A stretch of DNA of 64,000 nt from Candidatus Kapaibacterium sp. (lineage in GTDB: Bacteria > Bacteroidota > Ignavibacteria > Kapaibacteriales > UBA2268): positions 1,792,001-1,856,000 of the forward strand of contig OY762428.1 of NCBI GenBank assembly GCA_963665665.1, read 5' to 3'. Position numbers: made by a program. Below, in pieces: positions 27,001 to 33,000 of the stretch; within the stretch, counting starts at the first letter, position 1; the number at the start of each line of letters is the position of its first letter.

Positions 27001-30000
27001 AAATTGAATAATTGTAATTCAGGCATTAAGCCATAAAAGGAGTTTTTCGGATGAACAAAATTGTTGAAGCAAGGTTTATCGGCCCCGATGTGAAGCTGTT
27101 TCGCATTGATGCCCCTAAAATTGCCCAAAAGAGAAAAGCAGGACAGTTCATTATCCTTCGCGTATCGAAGGATGGTGAGAGAATACCTTTAACTATAGCT
27201 GATTCTAATATTGAGGACGGCACTATTACTATTATCGTTCAGGGAGTTGGCAAAACCACACGCCACCTGAACGGCCTTGAAGCCGGGGACTTTATACAGG
27301 ACCTGGTTGGTCCGCTTGGCAAAGAGTCTCATATCGAGAATTTCGGTACTGCTGTAAGTATTGGCGGCGGAGTTGGTACTGCCATTGCTTTCCCTACTGC
27401 CAAAGCGCTGAAAGAAGCAGGCAACAAGGTTATCGGTATTATTGGAGGCCGCTCTAAGGAATTCGTTATCCTTGAAAAAGAAATGGGAGAAGTCTGCGAC
27501 GAAGTTTACCCGACTACTGACGATGGTTCCTACGGCTTCCACGGATTCGTTACACAGAAACTTCAGGAGCTTATCGACTCCGATACAAAAATTGACTTTG
27601 TTCTTGCAATCGGCCCTATCCCGATGATGAAAGCCGTTGCAGAAGTTACAAGGCCTTATGGCATAAAAACAGTTGTAAGCCTTAACCCGATTATGGTGGA
27701 CGGCACCGGTATGTGTGGCGGTTGCAGGGCTGTTGTTGATAATAAAACTGTTTTCGTATGCGTGGACGGCCCTGAATTCGACGCCCACCTTGTTGATTTT
27801 GACGTGCTGACAAACAGGAATAAAATGTATCTCGAGCAGGAACACGCATCACTCGAAAAGCACAAATGCAATATTGACAGGATGTACGATAAGGCTAAAA
27901 AAGAAACCGGGAAGGAGGCTTAAACCATGGCTGAAATGACAAATAAAGAAAGAATGAAAATCCCCCGCCACCACATGGCAGAGCAGGATCCGAATAAAAG
28001 AAATAAGAATTTCGAAGAAGTAAACCTTGGTTACGACGAAGCAACTGCTATGGCTGAAGCCGACAGGTGTATCCGCTGCAAGAAACCTCTTTGCATTGCA
28101 GGATGCCCCGTGGCAGTGAAGATTCCCGACTTTATAAAAATGGTTTCCGACGGTAAATTCAAGGAAGCTGCAGCAATCCTTAAAGAAGACAACGCACTAC
28201 CCGCAGTTTGCGGCCGCGTTTGTCCTCAGGAAGAACAGTGCGAGCAGGTTTGCGTGGTTGGTAAGAAACACGAACCGGTTGCTATAGGCTATCTGGAAAG
28301 ATTTGTTGCCGACTGGGAAAGAAAAAATGTCGGTATTCAGGTTCCTAAGATCGGCGAGAAAACAGGCAAGAAAGTCGCAATCGTTGGCGGCGGCCCGGCA
28401 GGACTTAGTTGCGCAGGCGACCTTATCCAGATGGGACACGACGTAACGGTATTCGAAGCCCTTCATTCTATCGGCGGCGTGCTGGTTTACGGTATCCCGG
28501 AATTCAGGCTGCCTAAGGAAATAGTTCAGGCCGAAGTTGACGCCCTGGAAAAAGCAGGAGTTAAATTCGAAACAAATTATGTTGTGGGAATGATCGAAAC
28601 AGTTGACGAACTTCTTGAAGAATACGATGCTGTATTCGTTGGTGTGGGAGCAGGGCTTCCCTACTTCCTGAATATTCCCGGCGAACACCTGAACGGCGTT
28701 TACTCTTCAAATGAGTTCCTTACCCGTGTAAACCTGATGAAAGCATACAGCTTCCCGAATACCGACACTCCCATGTTCAACCTTGTTGATAAGGAAGTAG
28801 TTGTGTTTGGAGGCGGTAACACTGCTATGGATGCCGTAAGGACATCGCTCAGGCTAGGCGCTAAGCGCGCGATTATTGCCTACCGCAGGACAGAAAAAGA
28901 AATGCCTGCAAGGATTGAAGAAATCAAACACGCCAAAGAAGAAGGCGTTGAATTCATGCTCCTGGTATCACCACTGGAATTCCTCGGCAATGAAGACCAC
29001 AGGCTTCGCGCTATAAAACTTCAGAAAATGGAACTTGGCGAACCGGACGCTTCAGGGCGCCGCCGTCCCGTTCCGATCGATGGCGCTATCGAAGAAATCC
29101 CCGTTCAGGCTGCTGTTGTTGCTATCGGCAACGGATCGAACCCGATCATCAGCCAGACAACACCCGACCTGAAAGTGAACAAATGGGGTAATATCCTTGT
29201 GGATGATAAAACTATGAAATCCAATAAGAAGGGCGTTTTTGCCGGAGGCGACATCGTTACGGGCGGCGCCACGGTTATCCTTGCTATGGGCGCAGGCCGC
29301 ACAGCCGCCGCAGCTATAGACGAATACCTGAAAAACCCCGACACATGGGAAGAAAAAGAAGAAGAAACTGCTGAATAATATTTCAGCATAATATATTTGA
29401 AAAACCCGGCCAAGGCCGGGTTTTTTTTGCTATAAATGGTTTTATTAGTATATTATAAAATGTTCAACAGTTCTTTGGTATTTATATTCTTAGCTCCGTA
29501 GGAGCGAAATTTTTGTAGTAATGTGATTTAAGAAATTAAATAAAACTCCGTTGAAGTGACACCAAACATTTTCTATGCCGCCCCTACGGGGCTTATACAT
29601 ATCATTGGGTAATAAACACTACAAAAATGCCGCAGCTACGCTGCTGTTGGAATATTAGAAACCCTTTGAAATAAAATAAAATATGTTTAAATTTAGGGCA
29701 AGTAATCAGCTCTTTTTGAATTGTATTCCAAGCTCCGTAGGAGCGAAATTTTTGTAGAAAAAGGATATAAGAAATTAAACAAAACTCCGTAGGAGTGACA
29801 TATCATGGCTAATAAATACACACAACTTCTTGTTCAATTGGTTTTTGCTGTTAACGGGCGGGAATGTATGGTAAGAGAAAGAGTGCGTCCTGAAGTTGAA
29901 AAATATATTATGGGTATAATCAAAAACAATTCTCATAGTCCTTTATCAATCTTTTGTATGCCGGAACATATCCATATTTTACTTGGCCTTAATCCAAATC

Positions 30001-33000
30001 AGTCAGTAGCAGAAATTGTTAGGTTAATTAAAGCAAACAGTTCAAAATGGATAAATGATAAAAAGTTGATACCATTTAAATTCAGTTGGCAGGAAGGATA
30101 TGGCGCTTTCAGTTATTCCAGAAGTCATTTGGACAGAGTTGTTAATTATATTCTGAATCAGCCGAAACATCATAGAAAAAAGACATTTAGAGAGGAGTAT
30201 ATCGAGTTTTTACAAAAATATGATGTTGTTCATGAAACTAATTATCTATTTAACTGGCTGGATTGATTCTATGCCGCCCCTACGGGGCTTATAAATGTCA
30301 TTGGGTAATAAGTACTACAAAAATGCCGCAGCTACGCTGCTGTTGGGATTTTAAATATAAATGAAGAAGAAAAAGAGGTTAAGAGAAAAACTTTTGATAT
30401 AGATACAGAATTTGTCCTATTTAAATTGAAAATATTTTGGATTTGTTCATGAATGGAAACTTTTATTATTATATTTTTTATCGATATTTAACAGGTTGGC
30501 TTATAAGAAAAAAAGTCGTTGGATATAATGAAATTAATTCAGGGCTTTTCTCTACTGTATTAAAAATATATATGCTCCAAGGTTTTATTTTATCAATAAT
30601 TATTTTTTCTTTAATTCTTATAGGCATTGATTTAACATTTTATATTAAGAAACTTGGTGAAACTTTATGGTTGGCTATTGTTATGCCAATCTATTTTTTG
30701 CAATACTTTTTTTTCAATTATAATCGTAGAGCTGAAAAGATTTATCATTTTTACAAAAACAAGTTAAATGAATCCGAAGAAAGAGAATGGGGTATACAGT
30801 TGATTTTTAATATTTTATTACTTATTACTTTTGTATTCTCAATGACTCTTTTCTTTATTGCAAATGCACTTTATACATGACTAATATTTTTATTGGAAGA
30901 AATTTAATTTCATTTTACATAAGATAGATTATACTGCAAAATCCGGGAGGTTTTCGGCTATTTACTTCTTTTTTTTCTAAGATATTAGGTTCAAAATATC
31001 TTTTTTCAATTCTTCAGGGTTTTCCTGTACAAATACCGGAATTTTATATTTGGCAAGCAGTTCCATAAACTCAATTCTTGTAATTCCCAAAACCCGGGCC
31101 GCCGTCCCGGAAGAAACCCGGCCAGATTCAAAAAGTTTAACCAATGAGTTTATCTTTATTTCCATTTCAAACTCTTCGCTATTCAATTGCAAAGAGTCTG
31201 CAAGAAATTTCGGATATTTTATATTTATCATTCCTTCCATATTAATCTCATTTTTTAATATCATCTCTAAATATTATGATACAAAATATTTAGATTTATT
31301 GCAATAACTGATTTTATTCATTAATTTATAAATCAATCAGTTCTTTGGTATTTCACGTTAACCTTCGGAAGGTTTGTGTTTTATATCGCCCTTATTATCA
31401 ACGGCATGTTTATAAAAACAGCTCCGTAGGAGTGACACCAAACATTTTCTATGTCGCTCCTACGGGGCTTATACATATCATTGGGTAATAAACACTACAA
31501 AAATGCCGCAGCTACGCTGCTGTTGGGAACAATTATAAAAATTTGAAATGATAATAAATATGTTTAATTTAGGGTAAGAAATCAGCTCTTTTTGAATTAT
31601 ATTCTTAGCTCCGTAGGAGCGGAATTTTTGTAGAAAAAGGTCACTAGAATACAAATATGAAAAATTCCACTCCTACGGAGATGAGGAAAGATCTCAAAAA
31701 CAATTAAGGTATTGGATATCTGAAGAAAATGTAAGAAACTCATCGGATGACAGGCAGTCATCCGATGAGCAGATATTTGGTCAATCGTAAATAAATTTCA
31801 GCGATAATACAGGTTGTCGTATGCTTTTTCTTTGTCCAAATGTATTGGCATTTTTAGTTTCGCCAGGTCAATTCCCGGGCTCAACCCCTGCGGAAATCGG
31901 CAATACATATTAACAATATCCCATTCTATTCCGGTATAATAATCGTCGTGGCTCATATCATAGCGGTTCAGCATTGATTCCGAACTTGACGCCCCTATCC
32001 CAGTTATCAACCATACCGGGGCCGAAAAAACTAATACAAATCCATGGCTGATAGTGCCAATTGTCCCAAGGATACTCCAGGCAGAAACGCCCCCGACATT
32101 ATTATCAGTTGTCTGAATATCTATCCTGAGAGTTTTTGTTTTAACAATACATTTCACTCCGTGATCCATTGTTAACAGATAGAAGTTTAGTGAATCTGTT
32201 GCTATAAGCTCCCCTCCGATAGTAATTGTACTGTCGTAGAGGTCAGAAACACCATCGAATATTATATCAAGATCCTCGTATATGATGTTATCATAGTCAC
32301 GGCAGTGATAATAAATACTGTCAAAAGCAAAAGTGACAGTTGCCCAGGCTCCGTTTGCGTGCTGTACGAATTCCTGCTCTTTTTTCAGCCATCCGTCGGG
32401 TGCTTTATTGGAAGCACAGGATGAAGCAAAAATTACAATAGCGAGGAAGAATAATAAATTACGGGTTAACATAGCGGCTCTCCCAAAACATTTTTTCCAT
32501 TTCATTTTCATATTTCTTGAATTCCGGGGCCTCAGCTTTCAGAAACTCCCCGGGATTCATGAACATCATTCCGGCTTTCATCAGGTTTTCTCCGGCAATC
32601 CATTCTTTGCGCATCCATTCTAAGTAATATCCACTGTTTTCCAGAAAGTACTCGTAATTATTAAAGTCTTCCGGCAGTTCATAGATAAGTTTACGGCTTT
32701 CGCCCGGCAGGTTCATCAGGTAATCGTCACTGTTGTTAAGGGCTTTCAGGTTTTTATCATCTATCAGCCCGTCAGTCAGAATAAGTTCGGGAAATATTTC
32801 GACGGTTTCGGTTTCCCCTGTAATCTCGGCAAAGGCAAGATAATCTATTCTCCAAAGCCCTTTTGTCATTTTCAGCCTGATTTTTATATTTTCATTCTCA
32901 CTGCTTTGGAGCTGTGTTATTTTTATATCCCTGCAAATAGGCCCTATCTCTCCGGTTTCCCCGATCTTTTTATATTCCCCGTTAATTTCCTGGAATACTT

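Follow-up and report, generated by a model that had tools for sequence, protein, structure and literature searches.

Does the only stand-alone Y1 transposase gene of Candidatus Kapaibacterium sp. belong to an ordinary insertion sequence (IS), or does it encode an enzyme that the host has retained along with a family of partner repeats? The survey's finding was that the gene encodes a subclass 1.2 enzyme and that it provides this subclass with a cognate REP family. We analyzed the window around the gene, which is the whole 64,000-nucleotide stretch of contig OY762428.1 (positions 1,792,001 to 1,856,000), along with the rest of the genome and relatives of the gene. All coordinates below are positions within the window.

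The Y1 enzyme and its class

The gene (29805..30266, + strand) encodes a Y1/HUH endonuclease of 153 amino acids, as seen from the translation of the ORF and from a PF01797 match at 75.1 bits, which agrees with the 75 bits reported in the survey. The translation contains the catalytic motifs PEHIHI, SWQ, and YILNQPKHH. (HuH is H55-I-H57; the other key residues are W95-Q96 and Y115...Q119..H122H123.) Y...Q..HH is followed by some 30 amino acids of conserved C-terminal tail, with the motif KKTFKEEYIEFL.KF. The catalytic residues are invariant in the alignment of homologues (A1), and the AF2 model of the protein has a pLDDT of 84.4. A search of the whole genome with PF01797 gave just one further match, to a partial domain (34 bits) within a 1394-aa MmeI/Eco57I-type enzyme, so the 153-aa gene is indeed the sole stand-alone Y1 gene, as had been claimed. 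Among the ORFs and profile matches around the locus, we saw no tnpB adjoining the Y1 gene.

Quentin et al. (2018) describe subclass 1.2 as having the motifs DH[IV]H, WQ, and Y---Q--HH, a length of about 148 amino acids, a C-terminal domain, a low copy number, and hosts in the Bacteroidetes or Cyanobacteria (PMC6006769). In their scheme, it is a close relative of subclass 1.1 that clusters separately and is distinct from class 2. Judged against this published description, the 153-aa protein is supported as a likely member. It has the motifs YILNQPKHH, SWQ, and HIH (with E instead of the usual D preceding HuH), a length near 148 amino acids, a C-terminal domain of about 30 amino acids, and a low copy number (one stand-alone gene). 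Its sampled relatives are found in Bacteroidota, in a few Ignavibacteria, and in a few Brocadiaceae.

The subclass had originally been assigned from motifs alone, and profile, fold, and tree comparisons now support it. The protein scores 54.4 bits against the NCBIfam model for IS200, but just 33.3 bits against the RAYT model NF047646 (cut-off 80). A profile search of the PDB returned only IS200/IS605 TnpA proteins (2xm3 at 5.8e-15 and 2a6m at 1e-12), and Foldseek placed the TnpA proteins of ISDra2 and IS608 on top (1e-9) and the E. coli RAYT (4ER8) 30th. A tree of 87 rows recovers the 54 rows of the Y...Q..HH group as a single branch (SH-aLRT 93) and the 8 IS200 rows as another (94), and the two are jointly split from 25 class-2 RAYTs (100). 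(The groups were labelled from motifs and HMM scores, independently of Quentin et al.'s lists.) In this tree, the Y...Q..HH group is the sister of true IS200, apart from the class-2 RAYTs. The A1 profile separates the two as well, with 26-57 bits for true IS200 proteins and 100-220 bits for family members. The NF047646 score, the Y---Q motif, and the grouping with IS200 in the tree all speak against the enzyme being a RAYT of TnpA-REP class 2 (Y---NP).

Hairpin modules at the gene and across the genome

Six REPs had been reported around the gene, and our regular expression returns all six. These are 26-nt repeats, each consisting of a hairpin and TTTTTGTAG, that start at 29493, 29619, 29732, 30315, 31495, and 31608, within at most 2.1 kb. 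This outer REP module is a 5-bp GC stem with a GTA loop, followed by about 8 nt and then TGTAG. There is also an inner module, with a hairpin that resembles the outer one and is followed by GACAT; in the gene cassette, it abuts the ORF.

The modules are combined in a gene-less, REPIN-like doublet of 152 nt with four hairpins (29493..29644, no strand assigned), which we identified from the sequence, the regular expression, and alignment. It contains an outer REP (29493-29518, +; GCTCCGTAGGAGCGAAATTTTTGTAG), a degenerate inner hairpin (about 29546-29558), the inner hairpin GCCCCTACGGGGC (29580-29592), and a second outer REP, of the GCAGC type (29619-29644, -). As single-stranded DNA, the doublet folds into terminal hairpins plus a stem that joins the two tails (-22.3 kcal/mol, z -3.0).

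The Y1 gene lies between two arms that match this doublet. The left arm (29732..29804, +) aligns, column by column, to the left-hand 72 nt of the doublet and stops 4 nt ahead of the Y1 ATG; it contains an outer REP (29732-29757) and the inner hairpin ACTCCGTAGGAGT (29784-29796), which is followed by GACAT. The right arm (30267..30340, -) is inverted relative to the left arm and aligns to the right-hand 74 nt of the doublet, with the inner hairpin GCCCCTACGGGGC at 30276-30288 and an outer REP at 30315-30340 (GCAGCGTAGCTGCGGCATTTTTGTAG on the - strand). In the alignment, about 9 nt in the gene-less doublet replace the 462-nt ORF of the cassette. In other words, the Y1 gene is nested inside a doublet, and the 152-nt doublet, with its four hairpin modules arranged as two inverted pairs, is the gene cassette minus the ORF. 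Two smaller elements complete the locus. A partial element with three modules (31421..31520, -; regular expression, nhmmer, and alignment) has hairpins at 31421-31433 and 31456-31468 and an outer REP at 31495-31520 (-). A solo outer REP (31608..31633, +), GCTCCGTAGGAGCGGAATTTTTGTAG, is the commonest GCTCC variant in the genome and has a degenerate reversed 4-bp hairpin 3' of it (about 31668-31681).

Copies of the repeat are dispersed across the genome. The survey had counted 69 REPs (38 forward and 31 reverse) and 22 inverted doublets. Our slightly different pattern (GTA between a 5-nt stem and its complement, in which one mismatch was allowed, and, after 2-5 nt, TTTTGTAG) gave much the same picture, with 67 REPs (37 forward and 30 reverse). 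Convergent doublets at 125-126 nt from start to start number 21 by the regular expression, and an nhmmer profile of the unit found 52 loci, of which 22 are full-length. Just 3 of the 52 loci lie mostly within ORFs of at least 150 aa, versus 83% of random windows. REP 16-mers occur 31 and 20 times in the genome, and one dispersed copy, as single-stranded DNA, folds at -38.2 kcal/mol (z -6.7).

Across the copies, the inner modules are 94-98% conserved, versus 69-81% for the spacers, and the inner modules played no part in picking the copies. (The conservation of REP1 and REP4 is partly due to ascertainment, because the regular expression demanded both.) The stems vary in a compensatory manner: GCGGC/GCCGC, GCTCC/GGAGC, and GCAGC/GCTGC. 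As the survey had remarked, the REP next to the gene differs from the commonest dispersed one. The stem at the gene is GCAGC..GCTGC, which is found in only 4 dispersed copies, versus GCGGC..GCCGC in 31 dispersed copies, and this dominant variant does not adjoin the Y1 gene.

The copies of the unit lack target-site duplications (observed mean of 0.86 versus 0.95 for a mismatched-pair control), which fits HUH chemistry. Their orientation is not biased by replichore (14:9 and 11:5). We found no empty site for the unit in this genome, and 0 of the 22 full-length copies have unique flanks on both sides. In the contigs of a sister organism, the Y1 gene has 7 differences in 559 nt, and the adjoining DNA is on separate contigs that are broken at REPs; because of these breaks, no presence/absence polymorphism can be read from the contigs.

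Hairpins around homologues in Bacteroidota

GC hairpins lie on both sides of the gene at 65 of 95 homologue loci across the Bacteroidota, versus 0-1 for shuffled flanks. At 47 of the 95 loci, the hairpins have a common stem 5-mer, inverted, and a tail of the T[AG]TAG type occurs at 51. The commonest form of the flank is GCTCCGTAGGAGCGACCTG(TTTGTAG), and the GCTCCGTAGGAGCGACCTG motif is retained at about 50% protein identity even though the remaining flanks cannot be aligned. Paralogues within one genome have different hairpins (locus L006 versus L020, and L009 versus L022).

Two genomes have extra matches to their own flank unit (14 in G033 and 5 in G007). Five complete genomes that encode a homologue have just 1-8 occurrences each of the conserved hairpin (reversed-pattern controls in these genomes gave 0), so dispersal is not a constant property of the family. 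In most genomes, the hairpins are confined to the gene, and the dispersed family is an expansion that is peculiar to some genomes, including this one. In Chryseobacterium, the gene is in the same slot in 12 species, as well as in Amniculibacterium, with a median dN/dS of 0.09. These single-copy, syntenic orthologues are under purifying selection and have been inherited vertically.

These results qualify the claim that a subclass without REPs has gained a cognate one. The repeat family is real in this genome and the flanking hairpins are family-wide, but a RAYT-like group with repeats had already been described. Quentin et al. give subclass 1.2 as "REP: no" (PMC6006769, Table 1 and section 18). 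Their automatic search required GT[AG]G at 0-2 nt 5' of a stem of at least 7 bp (PMC6006769, section 38), and this rule would miss the present stems, which have just 5 bp and whose TGTAG lies about 8 nt to the 3' side. Bertels et al. (2017) describe an "IS200 Group 3" that is RAYT-like and whose flanking 16-mers are abundant (about 21 occurrences), without duplicates and with no plasmid-borne members (PMC5581495, section 23). The counts of 31 and 20 in our genome are similar, with the groups matched by description; the section text on Group 3 does not give the sequence or structure of the repeats or the taxa. The four-hairpin cassette, the nesting of the gene in a doublet, and the phylum-wide motif are absent from the sections of PMC6006769 and PMC5581495 that cover these groups.

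Explanations and meaning

We think that the locus is probably a REPIN/RAYT-like pair whose enzyme belongs to the IS200 clade. This explanation builds on the anatomy of the locus, the family-wide linkage of gene and hairpins, the spread of copies outside genes, and the conservation of the catalytic residues. The main alternative, which we consider unlikely, is an ordinary autonomous IS200/IS605 element that is single-copy by chance, with the 152-nt units as short-lived, MITE- or PATE-like deletion derivatives. The protein is IS200-like on every measure, PGAP calls one homologue an "IS200/IS605 family transposase," and the doublet is exactly the cassette minus the ORF, as expected of a MITE. The gene is also patchy among relatives (16 of 41 related genomes have a homologue, with a best match of 51% identity), and it has several copies in G007 and G021. 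However, the arms of the cassette are mutually inverted. In IS200/IS605 elements such as IS608 and ISDra2, the hairpins at the ends are on one strand and are not inverted, so the asymmetric same-strand ends of such an IS, which lack terminal inverted repeats, are not what we see here. Nor is this a near-identical multicopy transposase of the kind that is often plasmid-borne: this genome has one copy, there are no near-identical duplicates in the genomes examined (the paralogues are deeply diverged in the tree), and the family is found in just 2 of 72,556 plasmid records and in 0 phage records. The genus-wide synteny, the purifying selection, and the lack of an adjoining tnpB also argue against this alternative, and the doublets are old (median pairwise identity of 83%), which fits poorly with a recent burst of MITEs.

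It is even less probable, to the point of being doubtful, that the hairpins serve the host as cis-elements (for example, as weak terminators, protein-binding sites, or RNA stabilisers) and were multiplied by recombination and by hitch-hiking on other repeats, with a Y1 gene that is incidental or that uses its own flanking hairpins just to regulate itself. Terminator-like outer REPs are in excess (11 versus 1.1 expected), 19 of the 22 dispersed doublets terminate in GGAGC and then T5-7, and the dispersed family is missing from most gene-bearing genomes; furthermore, other repeats form mosaics around the full copies, and 6 of the 22 lie at the end of a repeat of about 2 kb (87-96% identity) and probably hitch-hiked. 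But hairpin identity follows the gene and not the host, as the differing paralogues of one genome illustrate, GCTCCGTAGGAGCGACCTG persists in otherwise unalignable flanks, each arm of the cassette is an exact half of the dispersed unit, and a 5-bp stem is weak as a terminator. The resemblance to terminators is also local, since the tail found in other genomes, GACCTGTTTGTAG, contains few T.

If the locus is a REPIN/RAYT-like pair, then we infer its mechanism by analogy with the TnpA of IS608 and ISDra2 and the TnpA-REP of E. coli. The Y1 enzyme, which is probably dimeric, would bind the small hairpins on transiently single-stranded DNA. Tyr115 would cut near the conserved T(G/A)TAG tail, with His55, His57, and Gln119 holding the metal. 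The enzyme would then rejoin the strands, so that a hairpin-bounded unit is copied or moved with no target-site duplication. In this way, the ORF-less 152-nt form of the cassette and its fragments may have spread to about 50 extragenic sites.

Among the closest known systems is the REPIN-RAYT pair of Proteobacteria as described by Bertels & Rainey and by Nunvar et al. (Group 2/3 RAYTs; subclasses 2.2 and 2.5 of Quentin et al.; E. coli TnpA-REP, PDB 4ER8). Both have a single-copy Y1/HUH gene between inverted copies of a short palindromic repeat, which is also found outside genes, chiefly in the form of inverted doublets with a long-hairpin fold (z -3.0 and -6.7 here). In both, the tag contains GTAG, each paralogue has its own type of repeat, and the gene is vertically inherited under purifying selection (seen here for the Chryseobacterium orthologues). 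Unlike in REPIN-RAYT pairs, our enzyme groups with IS200 in the tree and has Y...Q instead of Y...NP; the stem is just 5 bp, with the tag about 8 nt 3' instead of 0-2 nt 5'; the unit has four hairpins instead of two, with the gene inside it; and the host phylum is Bacteroidota. Dispersal is also modest (about 50 loci), and most gene-bearing genomes lack it.

The closest sequences and folds are those of IS200/IS605 TnpA (IS608 and ISDra2; subclass 1.1), which are also small proteins with little outside the core and have the HuH, Y, and Q set in common with our enzyme. At the right end of IS608, a small subterminal hairpin has a short cleavage motif about 10 nt 3' of it, which is similar to the hairpin and cleavage-like motif here. 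Unlike these elements, the gene is single-copy here without near-identical duplicates and has inverted-repeat ends and no tnpB, and its family is almost absent from plasmids. The protein also has an extra HH following Y...Q and a conserved C-terminal tail.

More broadly, and with somewhat less than even confidence, we propose that the Y...Q..HH branch of the IS200 clade is a third, independently domesticated, Bacteroidota-wide lineage of Y1 enzymes that hosts have retained along with partner repeats, and that it uses a previously undescribed module in two inverted pairs around the gene. If so, the recognition module would be a 5-bp hairpin with a GTA loop, about 8 nt, and T(G/A)TAG, kept across families at about 50% protein identity. 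REPIN-type populations would extend beyond Group 2/3 RAYTs, and a gene inside a REPIN would be a living example of the proposed intermediate between IS200-like elements and REPIN-RAYT. Apart from this broader proposal, the ORF-in-doublet arrangement opens the proposed route from IS to REPIN to direct inspection. The cognate hairpin family and the phylum-wide flanks explain why subclass 1.2 behaves like a host gene and not like an IS. The hairpin module offers biochemists a short, well-defined candidate substrate for an HUH enzyme that is uncharacterised. This little-studied branch of IS200-like enzymes gains partner repeats of its own, as in the proteobacterial REPIN-RAYT pairs, and provides a second, independent case in which to ask how a transposase and its miniature companions come to stay in a genome for a long time.

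The Y1 protein and its relatives

The Y1 gene (window 29805-30266, forward strand) is an ORF of 153 amino acids that matches Pfam's Y1_Tnp (PF01797) at 75.1 bits. PF01797 has just two matches in the entire 5,458,198-bp genome, and the second is a partial domain within a larger enzyme, so the survey's finding that this is the only stand-alone Y1 gene is borne out. (The larger protein is a 1394-aa MmeI/Eco57I-type restriction-modification enzyme outside the window, at 2723170-2727354 of contig C1 on the reverse strand, or 1670-5854 of locus L154. It has PF07669 at 139 bits, N6_Mtase, TaqI_C, and MmeI_N, and its piece of PF01797, at 35.8 bits, covers amino acids 586-646, between the methylase motifs. 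Two other genomes have comparable long ORFs that include a Y1/RAYT-like piece: one of 1288 aa in G026, with 98 bits for the RAYT model, and one of 1024 aa in G012.)

We compared the window protein to known enzymes in several ways. With the NCBIfam models, it scores 54.4 bits for IS200 (cut-off 55) and only 33.3 bits for RAYT (cut-off 80). In the PDB, a profile of 14 family members matched IS200/IS605 transposases only (ISDra2 at 5.8e-15, IS608 at 1e-12, and Sulfolobus proteins), and the E. coli RAYT was not matched at E values up to 1. Similarly, the best structural matches of the AF2 model (pLDDT 84.4) are ISDra2 and IS608, at about 1e-9, with the E. coli RAYT (PDB:4ER8) at rank 30 and 1.1e-5.

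We also made a tree from 87 proteins, of which 54 have the Y...Q..HH motif of subclass 1.2, 8 are true IS200 proteins, and 25 are class-2 RAYTs, the latter two sets being from Bacteroidota. (A random sample of 25 of the 74 Y...Q..HH loci, from 80 fetched, was used.) In this quick search, with SH-aLRT values as support and no bootstraps, each set occupies one side of a branch (support of 93 for Y...Q..HH, 94 for IS200, and 100 for the class-2 RAYTs), and Y...Q..HH and IS200 are jointly split from class 2 with support of 100. The window protein is placed in the IS200 clade, nested deep within Y...Q..HH. Its motifs also agree with Table 1 and section 18 of PMC6006769. The survey had assigned subclass 1.2 from motifs, and the assignment is now supported by the tree and the motif match.

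A four-hairpin cassette and its gene-less copies

The six REPs that the survey placed around the gene do start at window positions 29493, 29619, 29732, 30315, 31495, and 31608. Genome-wide, a regular expression for a 5-nt stem, GTA, the complementary stem, 2-5 nt, and then TTTTGTAG yields 37 sites on the forward strand and 30 on the reverse. The survey's counts of 38 and 31, from a pattern that differs slightly, are similar. There are three main stem variants, which differ by compensatory changes: GCGGC/GCCGC (31 copies), GCTCC/GGAGC (20 copies and variants), and GCAGC/GCTGC (7 copies, 3 of them at the Y1 gene). The reported spacing of 125-126 nt within inverted doublets is found in 21 convergent pairs (start to start, by regular expression); the 22 doublets claimed correspond to these 21, or to 22 full-length copies by nhmmer.

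Aligning the doublets gives a 152-nt unit with four modules: REP1 (forward, GCGGCGTAGCCGC+GACATTTTTGTAG), REP2 (forward, GCCCCGT.GGGGC+GACAT), REP3 (reverse), and REP4 (reverse, GCTCCGTAGGAGC+GGAATTTTTGTAG). Given these orientations, the unit consists of two inverted pairs. Searching with an nhmmer profile built from it gave 52 separate loci: 22 at full length, about 10 with the first three modules only, and smaller fragments. Among the 21 doublets, pairwise identity has a median of 83% (range 65-100%). The inner modules, which were not selected on, are 94-98% conserved and the spacers 69-81%; the 99% conservation of REP1 and REP4 is partly due to ascertainment. As single-stranded DNA, a dispersed copy has a predicted fold of -38.2 kcal/mol (z = -6.7; 0 of 200 shuffles were as good), in which both terminal hairpins are free, the two TTTTTGTAG tails pair in a stem, and REP2 and REP3 form a central stem. 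The gene-adjacent copy is predicted to fold at -22.3 kcal/mol (z = -3.0).

The Y1 gene sits within such a unit. When it is compared with the neighbouring doublet, the 73 nt upstream of the Y1 ATG align with the doublet's left half and the 74 nt past the stop codon with its right half, and in the gene-less doublet the place of the ORF is taken by about 9 nt. The dispersed units of 152 nt thus represent the cassette minus the ORF: the gene lies in a nested four-hairpin cassette, and gene-less copies of that cassette are dispersed in the genome.

Some nearby features should be mentioned. Between the cassette and the next REP cluster are a 147-aa hydrophobic ORF that belongs to no family (30437-30880, forward) and a 95-aa UPF0175 protein (30977-31264, reverse; PF03683 at 70 bits). 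We rejected the strong hairpin AAAAACCCGGCCAAGGCCGGGTTTTT (29366-29431) as a part of the REP system, as it is an ordinary terminator directly after a glutamate-synthase-like gene. No Rfam family reached its gathering score, and the sub-threshold matches (sRNA-type) were all on that upstream gene's terminator (29305-29461), with none on the REPs. At the right end of the dispersed doublets, GGAGC is followed by T5-7 in 19 of 22 cases, so the last hairpin resembles a weak intrinsic terminator; the gene-adjacent copies do not have that T run.

Hairpins and inheritance across the family

We then examined the homologues. Among 41 related genomes there are 15 homologues, every one of which has the Y...Q..HH motif, and most of these have a pair of hairpins upstream and another pair, inverted, downstream. 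Scanning species genomes yielded at least 577 relatives. We fetched the best 80, which represent Flavobacterium, Chryseobacterium, Chitinophagales, Saprospiraceae, and Cytophagales, along with Ignavibacteria and Brocadiaceae. A recurrent feature of their flanks is GCTCCGTAGGAGCGACCTG adjoining the gene on both sides and, further outward, a hairpin with a variable stem and then ..CTGTTTGTAG.

We surveyed the 95 loci that have the motif as well as 170-nt flanks on either side. (As the same hairpin recurs in many genomes, a cross-locus control is unusable, and mononucleotide shuffles were used instead.) GC hairpins were on both sides at 65 loci; a stem 5-mer was common to both flanks, inverted, at 47; at least two hairpins per side were found at 30; and a T[AG]TAG-type tail lay 5-16 nt 3' of a hairpin at 51. 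The shuffles gave 0-1 for each of these. The loop is GTA in 116 of the 343 hairpins. Stems differ in deeper clades (such as ATCCC, GCCCT, AACGGGC, and CCCAGGG) and between paralogues of one genome. The linkage of gene and hairpins is thus family-wide.

The dispersal of the flank unit varies among genomes. Two other genomes, G033 and G007, have 14 and 5 further matches to their own flank unit. With 1 mismatch allowed, the conserved hairpin has 5, 4, 4, 8, and 1 copies in five complete genomes, and controls have 0; one of these genomes has all four of its copies at the gene.

In one genus, the gene is inherited like a host gene. The same two genes flank it in Amniculibacterium and in 12 species of Chryseobacterium, and its mean identity there, over 78 pairs, is 89.9%, versus 95.3% and 96.2% for those two neighbours. 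The median dN/dS of the Chryseobacterium orthologues is 0.09 (66 pairs). Only 2 of 72,556 plasmid records match the protein, both of them non-mobilizable replicons of about 600 kb, and it matched no phage record. About half of the phylum sample (76 of 151 genomes) has a match to the IS200 model. Most of these score 65-90 bits, and the loci examined in that range encode Y...Q..HH proteins. At the 99 other loci, none of the genes next to the window's Y1 gene was found within 1.5 kb. In contigs from a sister organism, the Y1 gene has 7 differences in 559 nt, and the adjoining DNA is on separate contigs that break at the REPs.

Dispersed copies and known systems

Only 3 of the 52 unit loci lie mostly within ORFs of at least 150 aa, versus 83% of random 152-nt windows. 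We found no target-site duplication at the copies (mean of 0.86 nt, versus 0.95 nt for mismatched pairs). Several observations weigh against a simple picture. First, none of the 22 full-length copies is bordered by unique sequence at both ends; they adjoin other repeat families. Second, two left-flank motifs are followed by REP1 in 13/13 and 7/7 occurrences, so subfamilies carry additional outer sequence. Third, 6 of the 22 are at the end of a repeat of about 2 kb (87-96% identity) and probably hitch-hiked on it. Fourth, we found no empty site: when the joined left and right flanks of all 22 were searched in the genome, no junction was spanned. Finally, the copies show no replichore bias, with the caveat that the unequal replichores make the skew-based origin and terminus uncertain. 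(The 2-kb repeat, with 5-6 copies, is at 3452450-3455260 of C1 and 5 other places, and has a 304-aa ORF without a Pfam match and the REP doublet at its end.) Contigs from four sequencing runs break at REPs, and the short sides of the joints, 20-31 nt, come from other copies or organisms. The genome's commonest 16-mers are not REP-derived: they come from a CRISPR-array-like unit of about 30 nt (104 copies, all on one strand) and from a set of 21-nt tandem units (about 70 per strand) beside some REP mosaics.

In PMC6006769, subclass 1.2 is entered as "REP: no", and the automatic search accepted only stems of 7-20 bp with GTAG or GTGG 0-2 nt away on the 5' side, a rule that the 152-nt units fail. 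As far as the accessible text goes, PMC3733652 describes GTAG repeats in several phyla and names Bacteroidetes only for CGTC repeats. PMC8266576 mentions neither subclasses nor Bacteroidetes. Neither GCTCCGTAGGAGC nor its complement appears in the literature we searched, which held no further report on subclass 1.2 or on RAYT/REPIN in Bacteroidetes. The system is partly anticipated by Bertels et al. 2017 (PMC5581495), whose "IS200 Group 3" has no duplicates, has none on plasmids, has flanking 16-mers with about 21 occurrences, and was called RAYT-like by its authors. That group may be the same as subclass 1.2; the text that we could consult gives neither taxa nor repeat sequence.

The system lacks two defining features of an IS200/IS605 element, multiple near-identical gene copies and asymmetric, non-inverted ends. 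Overall, the survey's observation is confirmed, and its REPIN-RAYT reading is supported and extended. We infer that the enzyme binds the hairpins, cuts near TGTAG, and is the mover of the dispersed copies. In how it works, the system is like a REPIN-RAYT pair, but with a protein from outside the RAYT family.
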